64,000 bases of DNA from a virus, in the IMG/VR virus record IMGVR_UViG_3300042870_001823, positions 1 to 64,000 of that record. One strand, 5' to 3'. A program made the translations under genes and the position numbers. Below, in pieces: positions 20,979 to 35,054 of the stretch; position 1 is the first letter of the stretch, and every line of letters begins with the position of its first letter. The notes beneath the pieces were generated by a model. That model was given only the letters and a program-made list of their open reading frames with translations, did no database searches and had not been told where the DNA came from.

Positions 20979-21785
20979 TTAAAGTGAGTAATCTTTTAGC
21001 GACTTCTTTTTTTGGTAGTCTTCTATTAGATTGGGCATCCAGACTTTGTAGCCGTTTTCTTGACCAACTACTTCTTCTTGCTCGAAAGAAGTCCCATAGC
21101 AAGCAATACTTAAATAAGCATATCTTTCACCCTTTTCAACTGGCAGGACTTCGTGTCTACCAATATAGGAAGAAGGGTATATTGCAACTGAACCAGACTT
21201 TGGTTTCCATACGGTAGAAATATTAGGGAAGTGGAGTTGCCCGCCGGTGTAGTTGTGGCCATTTAGTTCTTCTTCTGTTTCTACGCAGTCGTTTAAGTAC
21301 AGGTTAATGCTTGAACTGTTATGCATAGACACTTGATTGCCGGTTGGCTTACCCCATTCATATGGAACTTGATCATCGCAATGCTGACCTATTCCTTGGC
21401 CATTTTCATATCCTGCTATGTGACCATTGGGTCTCCACCAAGAAGTCGTTGCAGCATCTGGAAAGTAGCAACAATATTCAACTAGTGCATCATATATGGC
21501 ATTCTCTAGTGAATCAATAAAGTCTATATATTTTTGAGGGACTTCAATATCTAGCTGTTTACCCTTAGTGTCCAAGAATCTTTGAGGAGCTTTTTCTATA
21601 TCTGATAAGTTAAATTTAAAACCAGTTTTATTAGTAGCATACTTAACACCATCTTCTTCATGATAGGTGAATGTGTCTTCCTGATTCTTTCGAATCCAAC
21701 TCATGTATTCGAAAAGCAGGTTTTGATTTACGTCAATTACATTTTCTATTACAACTACGCCCATGCCAATATGTTCAGATTTCAT
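20979..21785 (-). CDS. 2OG-Fe(II) oxygenase, prolyl 4-hydroxylase-like
   Basis: HCD ... LYLND..GGQLHF ... HEV ... ERY (HxD..H..R). Confidence 0.85.
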   Translation of the reverse strand: MKSEHIGMGVVVIENVIDVNQNLLFEYMSWIRKNQEDTFTYHEEDGVKYATNKTGFKFNLSDIEKAPQRFLDTKGKQLDIEVPQKYIDFIDSLENAIYDALVEYCCYFPDAATTSWWRPNGHIAGYENGQGIGQHCDDQVPYEWGKPTGNQVSMHNSSSINLYLNDCVETEEELNGHNYTGGQLHFPNISTVWKPKSGSVAIYPSSYIGRHEVLPVEKGERYAYLSIACYGTSFEQEEVVGQENGYKVWMPNLIEDYQKKKSLKDYSL

Positions 21786-21793
21786 GATATTCC

Positions 21794-22675
21794 TTAGTAG
21801 TTAGATTTTGTTATATAAAATTGAGGAGAATCTTCTTTATAGCCAGACTCTAGTAGATGATTCTTTAAGTCGTCTCTTAAGGTTGGCATATATACATTAG
21901 TTGCTTTTTGGGATAATTCTGGATCCTTTAAAGGGTCAGCAACGTATTCGTGAACTGCTGGATTAGGAGTTCCTTGACTATACCATCCAAGGTAACTGTA
22001 CCTAAAGCCTCCTCTAACTGGCTTAACTTCATGTGCGGCCATGTAGTTGGAGGGAAAGAATATTATATCTCCTTTTTTGGGAGAATAATCTATGTCTAAA
22101 TAGTTAAAATAATGATGACCACCCATGTAGTTACTTCCATCTAATTCTTCTTCGTTGTCAACGGAATCGTTAAAATAAACCAAACTAGTAACTACATTTC
22201 TTAATGCCAATTGGTCTTGTGGTTCTAGAACTCCATAAATATAATCAGCACTAATATCTGAATGAGAACCAAGATAAACATCTTTTGGATATTGAAGAAT
22301 ATGACCTTTGACTTTCCACCATACGCACTTATAGGCTAAGGGGAATAATTCAAAATATTGAAGAAGACATTTGTCTTTTGATGATTCTATAAAAGAAAAA
22401 ATACTACGAAGATCATCATTGTCCTTGTAGTGAATTGCGCTTGCTCTCTTTGGCATTAAGTCAATACTGTGCTTATTGAAAAAGTAGCCACTTTTATTTA
22501 CATATATTTCTTCATTGGTTTCCGGATCAATTCCGGGAGAATACATTTCGCTCCACTCTTCTTGAATTAAATCGTCAGATCTGTTAAGTAAATTCTGCCA
22601 ATCTAAATCTAGACAACCTTCGAATACTACAACTCCACCACCTAGGTGTTTTGGTTCTACTTTATTGAATATCAT
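21794..22675 (-). CDS. 2OG-Fe(II) oxygenase, prolyl 4-hydroxylase-like
   Basis: HSD ... VYFND..GG ... HEV ... FRY. Confidence 0.85.
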   Translation of the reverse strand: MIFNKVEPKHLGGGVVVFEGCLDLDWQNLLNRSDDLIQEEWSEMYSPGIDPETNEEIYVNKSGYFFNKHSIDLMPKRASAIHYKDNDDLRSIFSFIESSKDKCLLQYFELFPLAYKCVWWKVKGHILQYPKDVYLGSHSDISADYIYGVLEPQDQLALRNVVTSLVYFNDSVDNEEELDGSNYMGGHHYFNYLDIDYSPKKGDIIFFPSNYMAAHEVKPVRGGFRYSYLGWYSQGTPNPAVHEYVADPLKDPELSQKATNVYMPTLRDDLKNHLLESGYKEDSPQFYITKSNY

Positions 22676-23589
22676 AATCTTCCAATTTCTTCATTAGTGT
22701 TATTGCTTGTCATTGGTCTTTTGGCAGCTTCTGTCAAGAGCGATAATATCTCTGGATCTGTGTTTGCGTGTCTTTTTTCTATTGCATTTAAATAGTCTTC
22801 AACTATATTTGGCATCCAAACCTGTCCGCTGTCCATTACGTCAGAAGGCATTCTTATATTTACACCTCTACTTTGGTCACTTGATCCCTGTGCAAAATAA
22901 CCAACATAAGCGTATCTTTCACCCTCTTTACACTCTAAAACTTTATGAGTTCCCAAATAATTAGAAGGAAACATTAACACGTCTCCTGCTTTTGGAGAAT
23001 ATGTAAAGTTTGCATAAGGGAAAACTATTTCACCACCTACGTAATCATTTTTATTTTTAATTTGATCAACAGAATCATTAAAGTATATAAGGCCACCTAA
23101 GACATTTCTTATGGCCAACTGTTGATCAGGCTCTGCTCCGGGTTGATAGTTTACATCGTTGTCACAATGTTTACCAAATCGTCCACCCTTACCATACGCT
23201 ACGATATGACCTTGTGTTCTCCACCACAGACAAGTTAGCATCATGGGGAATATCTCTACATATCTTAGCATACATGCGTACATTGCATCCTCGCAAGCCT
23301 TAAAGAAATCAAAGTACTCTTGGCCCAATCCCTCGTGCATGAAATTCATAATATGATTAGAGGCGATTTCAACATCTTCTAAACTATACCTATGGCCACT
23401 TCTATTGATTGCATATATGGGATTGCCTATATCATTATTAATAAAAGTAAAATCGTCCTTTAAAGCTTGTAGTCGTACGCTTTTAGTAAAATCTAAAATG
23501 TAATCATGATCATTCATTGGAAGTACATTCTTAAAAAGAACAATTCCCATATCATATATTTCTATATTTTCTTCTTTTATCTCAAACAC
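22672..23589 (-). CDS. 2OG-Fe(II) oxygenase, prolyl 4-hydroxylase-like
   Basis: HCD ... IYFND..GGEIVF ... HKV ... ERY. Confidence 0.85.
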   Translation of the reverse strand: MFEIKEENIEIYDMGIVLFKNVLPMNDHDYILDFTKSVRLQALKDDFTFINNDIGNPIYAINRSGHRYSLEDVEIASNHIMNFMHEGLGQEYFDFFKACEDAMYACMLRYVEIFPMMLTCLWWRTQGHIVAYGKGGRFGKHCDNDVNYQPGAEPDQQLAIRNVLGGLIYFNDSVDQIKNKNDYVGGEIVFPYANFTYSPKAGDVLMFPSNYLGTHKVLECKEGERYAYVGYFAQGSSDQSRGVNIRMPSDVMDSGQVWMPNIVEDYLNAIEKRHANTDPEILSLLTEAAKRPMTSNNTNEEIGRL

Positions 23590-34299: not shown

Positions 34300-34562
34300 T
34301 AGATTTCCCCGCCATCGTATAGGATTACTATAGTATTAGTAACTTCAGCTTCTAATAAAACATCAATTGGAGTTCCCGCATTTATATTTCCACCAGCACT
34401 TATTCCTGCACTTTGGTCTAAAGAAAATTCTTTTATTGAGTTAGATCCATTTTTATAAAATAATTTTTCATCTGTATAGTTTATTGCTAACTCACCATGC
34501 TCTAGTGATACTGGGCTACTGGAAGATGTTCCAGAGTGTTTTAATTTAATAACATTAGCCAT
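34299..34562 (-). CDS. short fibre-N-terminal-like protein
   Basis: IKLKHSGT..LEHGELAINYTDEKLFYKNG and terminal DGG motif, as in neighbouring fibres. Confidence 0.6.
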   Translation of the reverse strand: MANVIKLKHSGTSSSSPVSLEHGELAINYTDEKLFYKNGSNSIKEFSLDQSAGISAGGNINAGTPIDVLLEAEVTNTIVILYDGGEI

Positions 34563-34573
34563 TGAATAACTCT

Positions 34574-35054
34574 TTATTTAAACGCAGGAGGGAAGTAAGG
34601 AGGGAAATATGGCGGAAAGAATGGCGGGAAGAATGGCGGGAAATATGGCGGAAAGAATGGCGGGAAGAAAGGAGGGAAGAAAGGAGGGAAGAATGGGGGG
34701 AAGTAAGGAGGGAAGTAAGGAGGAAAATATGGCGGAAAGAATGGCGGAAAGAATGGCGGGAAGAAAGGAGGGAAGTAAGGAGGGAAGTAAGGAGGAAAAT
34801 AAGGAGAATACTTAGTGTAAGCTACATCTTCTTTTCTAGGGTAGACAGTATTGGCTGCAGGTGATGATGACAATATCTCATCTAATCTAGTTAGATTGCC
34901 ACCACCGGCGTCATTTAATGGCGTGTTAGTTACAGTTCCGTTTGTCGAATTCAGCAGCTGTTAATTTAGGATCAGCAACTGCTGGCTTATCTCCAACTAT
35001 ATTAGGTACATTATTTTTTCTAGGTCCTGATGTATTTCCGCCACTGATAGCCAT
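34574..35054 (-). CDS. 159-aa PASTA-domain protein with 18 C-terminal FPP(Y/F) repeats; needs +1 shift at CGG (34940)
   Basis: VPNIVGDKPAVADPKLTAAEFDK-[c]GGA-TVTNTPLND..EILSSSPAANTVYPRKEDVAY matches the PASTA pattern across the junction; span 481 nt = 160 codons + 1. Confidence 0.75.
34583..34798 (-). repeat. 18 x 12-bp tandem repeat encoding FPPY (8), FPPF (9), FPPA (1)
   Basis: Counted from the translation; synonymous codons differ between units. Confidence 0.95.
34937..34940 (-). other. CGGA +1 recoding site (codon 39)
   Basis: GAC AAA CGG A; zero frame stops 4 codons later; +1 frame completes the PASTA domain. Confidence 0.75.

Follow-up and report, generated by a model that had tools for sequence, protein, structure and literature searches.

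Linkage of a fibre-side 2-oxoglutarate oxygenase array to an aromatic-proline repeat gene in uncultured jumbo myoviruses

What a tailed phage might do with nine oxygenases encoded among its virion genes is the question raised by IMG/VR record IMGVR_UViG_3300042870_001823. The window analysed here is the first 64 kb of this 74,213-bp record, for which CheckV gives a completeness of 35%. Within the window, an island at positions 20979-32263, flanked by sheath-side and tail-fibre genes, encodes nine 2-oxoglutarate (2OG)-Fe(II) oxygenases in about 11 kb, eight of the PF13640 type and one of the TauD type. About 2.3 kb from the last of these lies a gene, here called the FPP-repeat gene, whose product carries 18 F-P-P-[Y/F/A] units with 36 prolines, encoded at 34574-34873 on the minus strand. 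The original prediction, made from the letters of the window, had listed these genes along with two GPx-like genes and a DUF6065-like gene, and the list stands: the oxygenases have both Pfam matches and catalytic motifs, and the accessory genes match GSHPx and PF19541.

The principal result of the analysis is that oxygenases, DUF6065 and FPP-type tracts occur together beside fibre genes in phages whose heads are unrelated. With slightly less than even confidence, the reading favoured here is that the phage hydroxylates its own fibre-region proteins, with the FPP tail as the prime candidate.

Linkage of oxygenases, DUF6065 and the tract

Relatives of the window phage, termed clade I, were collected in a search anchored on DUF6065 that returned 188 IMG/VR stretches. 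Among the 18 full-length loci the island is always present with variable content: the TauD-type gene, the GPx-like genes and individual members of one oxygenase group (group A, below) come and go, extra copies appear, and the oxygenases number 5-12. By a strict regular expression, the FPP gene occupies the slot beside the homologue of the ORF (open reading frame) at 34299 in 17 of the 18. A scan of DNA for the pattern of four FPP[F/Y] units matched at least 119 stretches. Among the matches listed, an oxygenase homologue is present at 50 of the 59 FPP-pattern loci of at least 8 kb and a DUF6065 homologue at 39, and many of the homologues at FPP-pattern loci are only 25-48% identical to the window proteins. 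Of the nine loci with no oxygenase, two belong to contigs with 6 and 11 PF13640 genes at other positions, and several more are pieces of the fibre side with a truncated flank.

The same genes recur in a set of distant phages with genomes of roughly 105-125 kb, termed clade II. There the order is a fibre gene, a protein combining FN3 domains with the tract, one or two oxygenases resembling the window's 29486 ORF (29486-type), DUF6065, and then several resembling the 30264 ORF (30264-type) along with other oxygenases; the 29486-type gene adjoins the tract gene. The tract stands at the end of or within the FN3 protein and takes forms such as FFPP, FFPFFPP and FFAPP. For an estimate of linkage, loci were chosen by DUF6065 alone and not by the tract, with a second search anchored on a clade II DUF6065, and tracts were called by composition (at least eight prolines and eight aromatic residues in 24). 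By this measure every one of the 22 long clade II loci has a tract no more than 10 kb from the DUF6065/oxygenase core, as do 21 of 23 long clade I loci, or 43 of 45 together. The co-occurrence that the original prediction had proposed to test extends well past the relatives of the window phage.

The heads of the two groups show no such correspondence. Four clade II records, including one of 97% completeness, yield no detectable match to the portal or the major capsid protein of the window; in a clade I genome both are present, at 67% and 91% identity. In the 97%-complete record (G013, 105.5 kb), only 13 of the 78 window ORFs of at least 80 amino acids have a match at E <= 1e-5, and all 13 are oxygenases, DUF6065 or pieces of fibre genes, clustered at 50.5-65.6 kb. 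Because G013 shares only the cassette and fibre pieces with the window, the cassette is moved, or retained, as a unit. A quick maximum-likelihood IQ-TREE analysis of 84 oxygenases, in which long branches are unreliable, recovers 29486-type (SH-aLRT 99) and 30264-type (91) orthogroups that span both phage groups, four group A orthogroups restricted to clade I plus an intermediate lineage, and several others specific to clade II. The unit kept or exchanged comprises the fibre pieces, the tract protein, the 29486-type enzyme, DUF6065 and the 30264-type enzyme. That such a unit is shared across phages with unrelated heads is the strongest argument for joint work at the fibre.

The FPP-repeat gene is a genuine, conserved coding gene, as its pattern of codon use and its orthologues support. 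The units are built from eight different 12-base words; F, P and P are constant in all 18 while the codons TTT/TTC, CCT/CCG/CCC and CCT/CCA alternate. Between units, 257 codon differences are synonymous and 89 are non-synonymous, the latter all at position 4. Since F-P-P is invariant despite this synonymous variation, the tract points to selection at the protein level and not to recent slippage. Orthologues have roughly 7-30 units. In the window, the ATG at 35054 opens a different frame that meets a stop after 42 codons, and the frame of the gene is broken at CGGA, 34940-34937 on the minus strand (AAA CGG AAC). Uninterrupted orthologues (L040, at 1648-2133; L052; L059) read ...F-x-K-G-T-V-T-N... 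at the break site, with Lys-Gly-Thr standing there as if CGGA encoded one Gly, and the same CGGA break is present in many relatives. For the head, some 80 residues long, no Pfam family was found at E <= 0.01 in an uninterrupted orthologue, on which ground a PASTA domain was rejected, and it has no similarity to the window's fibre proteins. The composition detector finds only this one aromatic-proline tract in the 64-kb window, and the 18 large virion-side ORFs of the window have no Pro-rich or collagen-like feature besides it. No literature describing FPP-type tails was found. Since the FPP repeat accompanies the enzymes even where the phage heads are unrelated, it is a testable candidate substrate.

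Two side observations concern the tract. Its antisense (34574-34830, plus strand) holds 9 of the 31 GGAGG words of the window, eight of them as AAGGAGG; these runs, which resemble Shine-Dalgarno sequences, were set aside as a signal and are most simply a by-product of the CCT CCT codons. Some clade II tract proteins (L226:7042-8394, L232:7206-8540, L257:4683-6011 and L265:7120-8559) carry a C-terminal Cys...HN domain after the tract. This domain has a weak Intein_splicing match (E 0.002, below the cut-off) and is possibly of the self-cleaving Hint type, with release or transfer of the tail as its role.

Source phage and proteins of the island

The source is an uncultured freshwater/lake jumbo myovirus of about 205 kb. 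In the window, PHROGs matches identify a tail sheath, a major head protein, a portal and fibre proteins, and the portal is 32-39% identical to those of the Bacillus jumbo myoviruses 0305phi8-36, Edson and WH1. No close DNA relative was found among isolate phages. Among the relatives, three genomes are complete, have terminal repeats and measure 202-210 kb; each yields 6-8 PF13640 matches, which fall nearly all inside the same island. As none of the three has psbA, a cyanophage identity was rejected. The 'moraphage' jumbo lineage (PMC12619734) was also set aside, being a different clade described in a paper that makes no mention of oxygenases. The island had been placed between neck and fibre genes. 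Its fibre side is upheld by an Mtd_N match in 32260-34299 and tail-fibre PHROGs in 37949-39634. The neck side is not, the nearest identified genes being sheath-like (PHROGs matches at 15478-19276); the stretch 19276-20572 matches no family searched. Table 1 collects the features of the island and its fibre flank.

Table 1. Features of the oxygenase island and the adjoining fibre genes in the window. P4H, prolyl 4-hydroxylase; aa, amino acids.
Feature	Coordinates	Strand	Evidence and remarks
Group A P4H-like Fe(II)/2OG oxygenase, 268 aa	20979-21785	minus	PF13640 38.7 bits; HCD...H...R; about 33% identity to three neighbours
Group A P4H-like oxygenase, 293 aa	21794-22675	minus	PF13640 43.8 bits; orthogroup kept in clade I
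Group A P4H-like oxygenase, 305 aa	22672-23589	minus	PF13640 40.3 bits
Group A P4H-like oxygenase, 370 aa, longer ends	23589-24701	minus	PF13640 37.6 bits
GPx-fold protein without peroxidatic Cys	24701-25315	minus	PF00255 107.5 bits, above cut-off
105-aa ORF	25315-25632	minus	no Pfam family; 28-68% conserved in relatives
Probable divergent 2OG oxygenase, 223 aa	25659-26330	minus	PF13640 24.9 bits, below cut-off
404-aa ORF	26343-27557	minus	no match in Pfam, PHROGs, NCBIfam or Atlas
Two small paralogous acidic ORFs, 73 and 84 aa	27568-27789, 27792-28046	minus	weak mutual match; kept in clade I
DUF6065 protein	28125-28826	minus	PF19541 154.7 bits, cut-off 26.6; core cassette member
Second GPx-fold protein	28804-29586	minus	PF00255 46.4 bits, above cut-off
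Core P4H-like oxygenase, 29486-type	29486-30172	minus	PF13640 40.9 bits
Core P4H-like oxygenase, 30264-type	30264-30884	plus (opposite strand)	PF13640 25.7 bits, below cut-off
TauD/TfdA-type oxygenase	30886-31743	plus	PF02668 47.4 bits, above cut-off
P4H-like oxygenase	31604-32263	plus	PF13640 38.3 bits
Tail-fibre protein, 679 aa	32260-34299	minus	Mtd_N PF18454 52 bits; pieces common to clade II phages
87-aa fibre-N-terminus-like protein, directly after FPP gene	34299-34562	minus	sequence; adjoins FPP gene in relatives too
FPP-repeat gene, head of about 80 aa and 18 x F-P-P-[Y/F/A], ending FK	34574-35054	minus	sequence
Large fibre-region protein, 949 aa	35056-37905	minus	position; homologues directly precede tract gene in clade II

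The Pfam gathering cut-off for PF13640 is 27 bits; six ORFs exceed it (37.6-43.8 bits) and two more fall just below. All nine oxygenase ORFs hold the iron-binding HxD/E...H facial triad, and in all eight of the PF13640 type the HxD...H is accompanied by Arg, or by Lys in 29486, exactly 10 residues after the distal His. H141, D143, H215 and R225 do not vary in an alignment of 33 sequences, which comprises 22672-23589 and relatives, the other three group A paralogues among them. The TauD-type motif, read from the sequence by spacing, is H97-x-E99, H240 and R255; its best match in the PDB is at E 0.43 only, with no close solved relative, and the gene is present in only some relatives. In 14 orthologues of 25659-26330, H104, D106 and H188 are invariant and R198 is nearly so. 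This ORF has no match to PDB sequences, and its assignment as a 2OG oxygenase is graded as probable because its profile-profile (hhalign) match to group A is weak (E 0.01).

The nine dioxygenases fall into at least four sequence groups. By all-against-all BLAST, group A consists of the four tandem paralogues at 20979-24701, with about 33% mutual identity, and group B of 29486, 30264 and 31604, which are 27-34% identical; 30264 is clearly paralogous to 31604 (E 2e-21) and to 29486, and 25659 is an outlier. The true start of 31604-32263 is probably at Met39, near 31718. Searches with 22672-23589 return 187 homologues, many of them on metagenomic contigs of up to 215 kb, and a 29486-like gene is found in 186 of 50,697 isolate phage records (0.37%), nearly all of them cyanophages.

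Both sequence and structure point to prolyl hydroxylases as the nearest characterized enzymes. A plain sequence search matches 29486-30172 to the Bacillus anthracis peptidyl prolyl 4-hydroxylase (3itq/5hv0, E 3e-6); against NCBIfam the oxygenases give weak matches only, far below the cut-offs, to PiuC/YbiX-type 'Fe2+-dependent dioxygenase' models. One oxygenase, 22672-23589, was modelled with AlphaFold (AF2; predicted local distance difference test, pLDDT, 88.6; predicted template modelling score, pTM, 0.88), and it is for this enzyme that the double-stranded beta-helix (DSBH) fold is shown, with Z up to 15.1 to solved 2OG oxygenases. Its Foldseek matches, as listed, are almost all prolyl hydroxylases (BaP4H, PBCV-1 vCPH, PPHD, Cr-P4H-1 and PHD2) or of the PiuC/3dkq type. 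In VIA-align, collagen P3H1, PHD2, Cr-P4H-1 with (Ser-Pro)5, vCPH and the EF-Tu hydroxylase stand at Z 14.2-15.1. Group A features in the model are an N-terminal stretch of some 120 residues and additional helices at the C-terminus. Taken at the level of the model, this places the oxygenases in the prolyl-hydroxylase (P4H/PHD) structural clade.

Neither GPx-fold protein has the catalytic tetrad of Cys/Sec, Gln, Trp and Asn. Aligned to yeast Hyr1 (3cmi), 24701-25315 has Phe for the peroxidatic Cys and His for the tetrad Trp, and its orthologues have F, Y, S or L at the Cys position and never Cys; a 13-residue insert just past this position carries another Cys. In 28804-29586, aligned to the same structure, the Cys is kept, Gln is replaced by Asp and Trp by Gly, and these changes are conserved along with the motifs NVTGECA, PSTDFC and GNFEKF. 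Its true start is probably internal, as the listed ORF overlaps the end of 29486-30172. Both are thioredoxin-fold proteins with no working peroxidase tetrad, and the earlier proposal that they act as peroxidases managing oxidants from uncoupled turnover falls with the missing residues.

DUF6065, in turn, is modelled (AF2, pLDDT 79) as a dUTPase-like beta-barrel, matched by Foldseek to trimeric dUTPases at E of about 4e-5, with template modelling scores up to 0.78 by target and identities of 8-15%. Its role as a tenth oxygenase was considered and rejected, the predicted fold being dUTPase-like and not DSBH. R23, W25, H33, Y35, C37 and other residues are invariant across proteins only 26-31% identical. 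The protein is present in both phage groups, was not found in isolate phages by tblastn, and no literature on it was found. Bacterial homologues, 30-38% identical, occur on chromosomes of the Caulobacterales, Sphingomonadales and Burkholderiales type with no conserved oxygenase neighbour: among 156 relatives, of which 36 long loci were analysed, a P4H-like neighbour was present in only 4, and the Pfam-checked neighbours are housekeeping genes (thiamine-phosphate synthase, thioredoxin-TPR, a Lon-type domain). DUF6065 also occurs at 66-75% identity on 14-25 kb contigs from metagenome-assembled genomes labelled Acidibacter, Gammaproteobacteria and Verrucomicrobiales (L290-L292). These give no host clue because they are probably phage contigs binned into such genomes.

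Candidate substrates and competing explanations

If the linkage reflects function, the cassette would be a fibre-side protein-tailoring set. The conserved core consists of prolyl-hydroxylase-like oxygenases of the 29486-type (one or two) and the 30264-type (at least one) with DUF6065 and its conserved Cys; to it the lineage of the window phage has added the four tandem group A paralogues, the TauD-type enzyme, one divergent oxygenase and the two GPx-fold proteins. The enzymes would be produced together with the virion genes, presumably late, and, with O2 and 2-oxoglutarate as co-substrates, would hydroxylate fibre-region proteins, most probably on prolines. As substrate, the best candidate is the (Phe-Pro-Pro-Tyr/Phe)18 tail that ends the 34574-35054 protein, which would be exposed and polyproline-like. 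Modification of the aromatic residues of the repeat, also part of the original prediction, is pure conjecture. A more ambitious version holds that a mobile fibre-maturation cassette, present in at least two unrelated phage groups, uses the oxygenases and the dUTPase-fold/Cys protein to turn an (FPP[F/Y])n tail into a hydroxylated, perhaps cross-linked, extensin-like appendage, which a Hint/intein-like domain releases or transfers in some phages; as a whole this is possible but doubtful.

Several observations weigh against fibre hydroxylation. That the enzymes modify the prolines of the repeat, as first proposed, is supported in part, through the linkage, and is opposed by phages that have such enzymes and no FPP tract. 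One lineage (L048/L049) keeps six oxygenases although the FPP gene is gone from its usual slot, and no FPPxFPPx pattern or aromatic-Pro tract was found in its 104.7 kb, a contig from which the head module is missing. No FPPxFPP was found in the cyanophage S-SCSM1, whose 24 oxygenases were 'not specifically investigated' (PMC9602691), or in the Methylophilales phage Melnitz, so oxygenase arrays need no FPP tract. Conversely, FFPP tracts are seen as internal linkers of large proteins on contigs with no oxygenase seen, these being fragments 26-31% complete. Five to 12 diverse paralogues seem to exceed the needs of one simple repeat. Fold alone cannot separate protein from small-molecule substrates: the top Foldseek matches, PiuC and 3dkq, are proteins with no known substrate, and PolD, a small-molecule enzyme, ties with the prolyl hydroxylases in VIA-align at Z 14.4. 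Searches for promoters and terminators did not rise above chance level, so that co-expression is an assumption drawn only from position and strand. Hydroxyproline was not detected in virions of PBCV-1, the one studied viral P4H precedent (PMC7019647). Finally, fibre regions are known accessory-gene hot spots in T4-like cyanophages (PMC3037559), and for this reason some of the linkage could arise from the hot spots alone.

As a separate observation, (FFPP)n linkers occur inside very large proteins rich in Ig- or FN3-like sequence, encoded by further uncultured phage contigs at loci L087, L089, L090, L096, L155, L166, L170 and L193. Locus L122 lies on a 454,919-bp contig.

Two alternatives are unlikely to a similar degree and survive best. 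In the first, the array makes a small molecule or peptide-derived metabolite, or hydroxylates free amino acids; the FPP protein would then be no more than a precursor, or would have no part in it. The island includes a TauD/CAS-like enzyme with HxE, from a family that mostly acts on small molecules. Many diverse paralogues would suit a multi-step pathway, the tie with PolD is in keeping with it, and DUF6065 joins a dUTPase-like fold to an invariant Cys. For the Syn9 array gp41-gp54, which has 10 tandem dioxygenases and a dUTPase-fold protein with a conserved cysteine, secondary-metabolite synthesis was argued by Iyer, Abhiman, de Souza and Aravind in 2010 (PMC2938197). However, Pfam finds no halogenase, nonribosomal peptide synthetase, ATP-grasp, methyltransferase, transporter or peptidase in any island ORF, and the core remains tied to fibre genes and a tract-bearing FN3 protein in two phage groups that are unrelated. 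The homology of DUF6065 to Syn9 gp43 is unproven (hhalign E 0.005 at 7% probability, suggestive only), and PF19541 was not detected in Syn9 or S-SCSM1.

In the second, the enzymes are host-directed: the targets of hydroxylation would be proteins of the host, for example EF-Tu or ribosomal proteins, or else the enzymes would alter 2-oxoglutarate/succinate and nitrogen signalling there, and their place beside the fibre genes would be incidental. Of 16 cyanomyoviruses, 14 were reported to have several 2OG-Fe(II) oxygenases, for which a link to 2OG and nitrogen status was drawn (Sullivan 2010, PMC3037559). Two EF-Tu hydroxylases, 4iw3 and 5v7y, rank with the closest structures, P4H-like genes are frequent among tract-less phages of aquatic oligotrophs, and the L048/L049 lineage fits this account as well. 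Against it, the genes lie on the virion-gene strand within the structural module and not among early genes, the core keeps a fixed order with tract and fibre genes across phages that otherwise share nothing, and burning 2OG would not require 5-12 divergent, individually conserved paralogues.

Distinctly less probable is that the genes have no joint function, the island being a hyperplastic accessory region in which unrelated oxygenase genes accumulated by duplication and transfer. Close relatives do differ in content, as described for the TauD-type, GPx and group A genes and for copy numbers of 5-12, and fibre-adjacent hot spots of the T4-like cyanophage kind would offer a site, the arrays of Syn9 and S-SCSM1 likewise abutting fibre genes. 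Yet two oxygenase orthogroups and DUF6065 hold their order and neighbours across very distant phages, and the catalytic residues are invariant. Modification or repair of nucleic acids in the manner of AlkB or TET/JBP is very improbable: DNA repair was suggested early for the cyanophage copies (Weigele 2007, as cited in PMC3037559) and the DUF6065 fold is that of a nucleotide-binding enzyme, but there are no AlkB or TET/JBP family matches, the best sequence and structure matches are prolyl hydroxylases, and DUF6065 is only 8-15% identical to dUTPases.

Hydroxylation of fibre-region proteins is the reading kept here, and its interest extends beyond this phage. Few 'auxiliary' genes are carried by aquatic phages more often than 2OG-Fe(II) oxygenases, for which no substrate has come to light since they attracted notice in 2007-2010 (PMC3037559, PMC2938197, PMC9602691); no literature on the substrates of phage P4H-like enzymes was found. 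Here an array is tied to one simple, synthesisable peptide motif and to tail-fibre genes across phages sharing nothing else detectable. Were the reading true, a fibre component would be matured by oxygen- and 2OG-dependent hydroxylation, and infectivity would depend on the oxygen, iron and nitrogen status of the host. A mobile fibre-maturation cassette, if real, would provide the first case of a bacteriophage structural element of collagen- or extensin-like type that is matured by enzymes, and would give a function to abundant orphan phage 2OG oxygenases. Should hydroxylation of the fibre fail, the small-molecule and host-directed accounts would gain weight.

Comparison with known systems

Tandem dioxygenase arrays in phages are already known, as is a viral P4H alongside Pro-rich repeats. 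The window resembles Syn9 and S-SCSM1 in holding many divergent tandem Fe(II)/2OG dioxygenases (here nine; five or more of several families) in a large aquatic myovirus, and in the position of the arrays directly beside tail-fibre or fibre-assembly genes (S-SCSM1 211670-224257, locus L281; Syn9 30000-50000, locus L284). DUF6065, with its invariant Cys37, fits the description by Iyer and colleagues of a dUTPase-fold protein with a conserved Cys in the Syn9 array, though its correspondence to gp43 is at most suggestive. The window differs from the cyanophages in its portal of the 0305phi8-36 type and in its relatives, which have no psbA; from Syn9 in that no tryptophan halogenase or JmjC/MINA-type family is found in any island ORF (Pfam, E <= 0.01); and from S-SCSM1, which has no FPP tract, in that its array is tied to an aromatic-proline repeat protein. 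Several genes of the Syn9 array carry doubtful RefSeq names, among them minor coat protein, endonuclease V and ferrochelatase.

A second comparison is with PBCV-1, whose prolyl 4-hydroxylase acts on Pro-rich repeat peptides according to the account in PMC7019647, which cites Eriksson 1999. As far as that account goes, both cases have a virus-encoded P4H-type enzyme alongside virus-encoded Pro-rich repeats as presumed substrates, and the PBCV-1 enzyme vCPH (5c5t) superposes on the 22672-23589 model with Z 14.5 and a root-mean-square deviation of 3.1 over 167 residues. PBCV-1, a giant virus of eukaryotes, has one such enzyme and PAPK-type repeats; the window has 8-9 predicted enzymes, encoded by linked genes, and aromatic repeats.

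Among cellular enzymes, the P4H of Bacillus anthracis (3itq, 5hv0), Pseudomonas PPHD (4iw3) and Chlamydomonas Cr-P4H-1 (2jig, 3gze) share the DSBH core, the HxD...H triad and a basic 2OG-binding residue with the phage proteins. The identity to these bacterial and algal prolyl hydroxylases is only 12-21%, and the N-terminal region and extra C-terminal helices of group A set it apart from them. Cr-P4H-1 binds its peptide in the polyproline-II conformation, and the FPP repeat would be expected to adopt the same one. Extensins and collagens differ from the tract in their Ser-Pro4 and Gly-X-Y motifs, neither of which is present in the FPP repeat, and the island has no glycosyltransferase or haem peroxidase, its GPx-fold proteins being devoid of the peroxidase tetrad. 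The likeness to them is one of concept: a repetitive Pro-rich structural tail that would be matured by 2OG prolyl hydroxylases, with Tyr set beside runs of Pro as it is in extensins.

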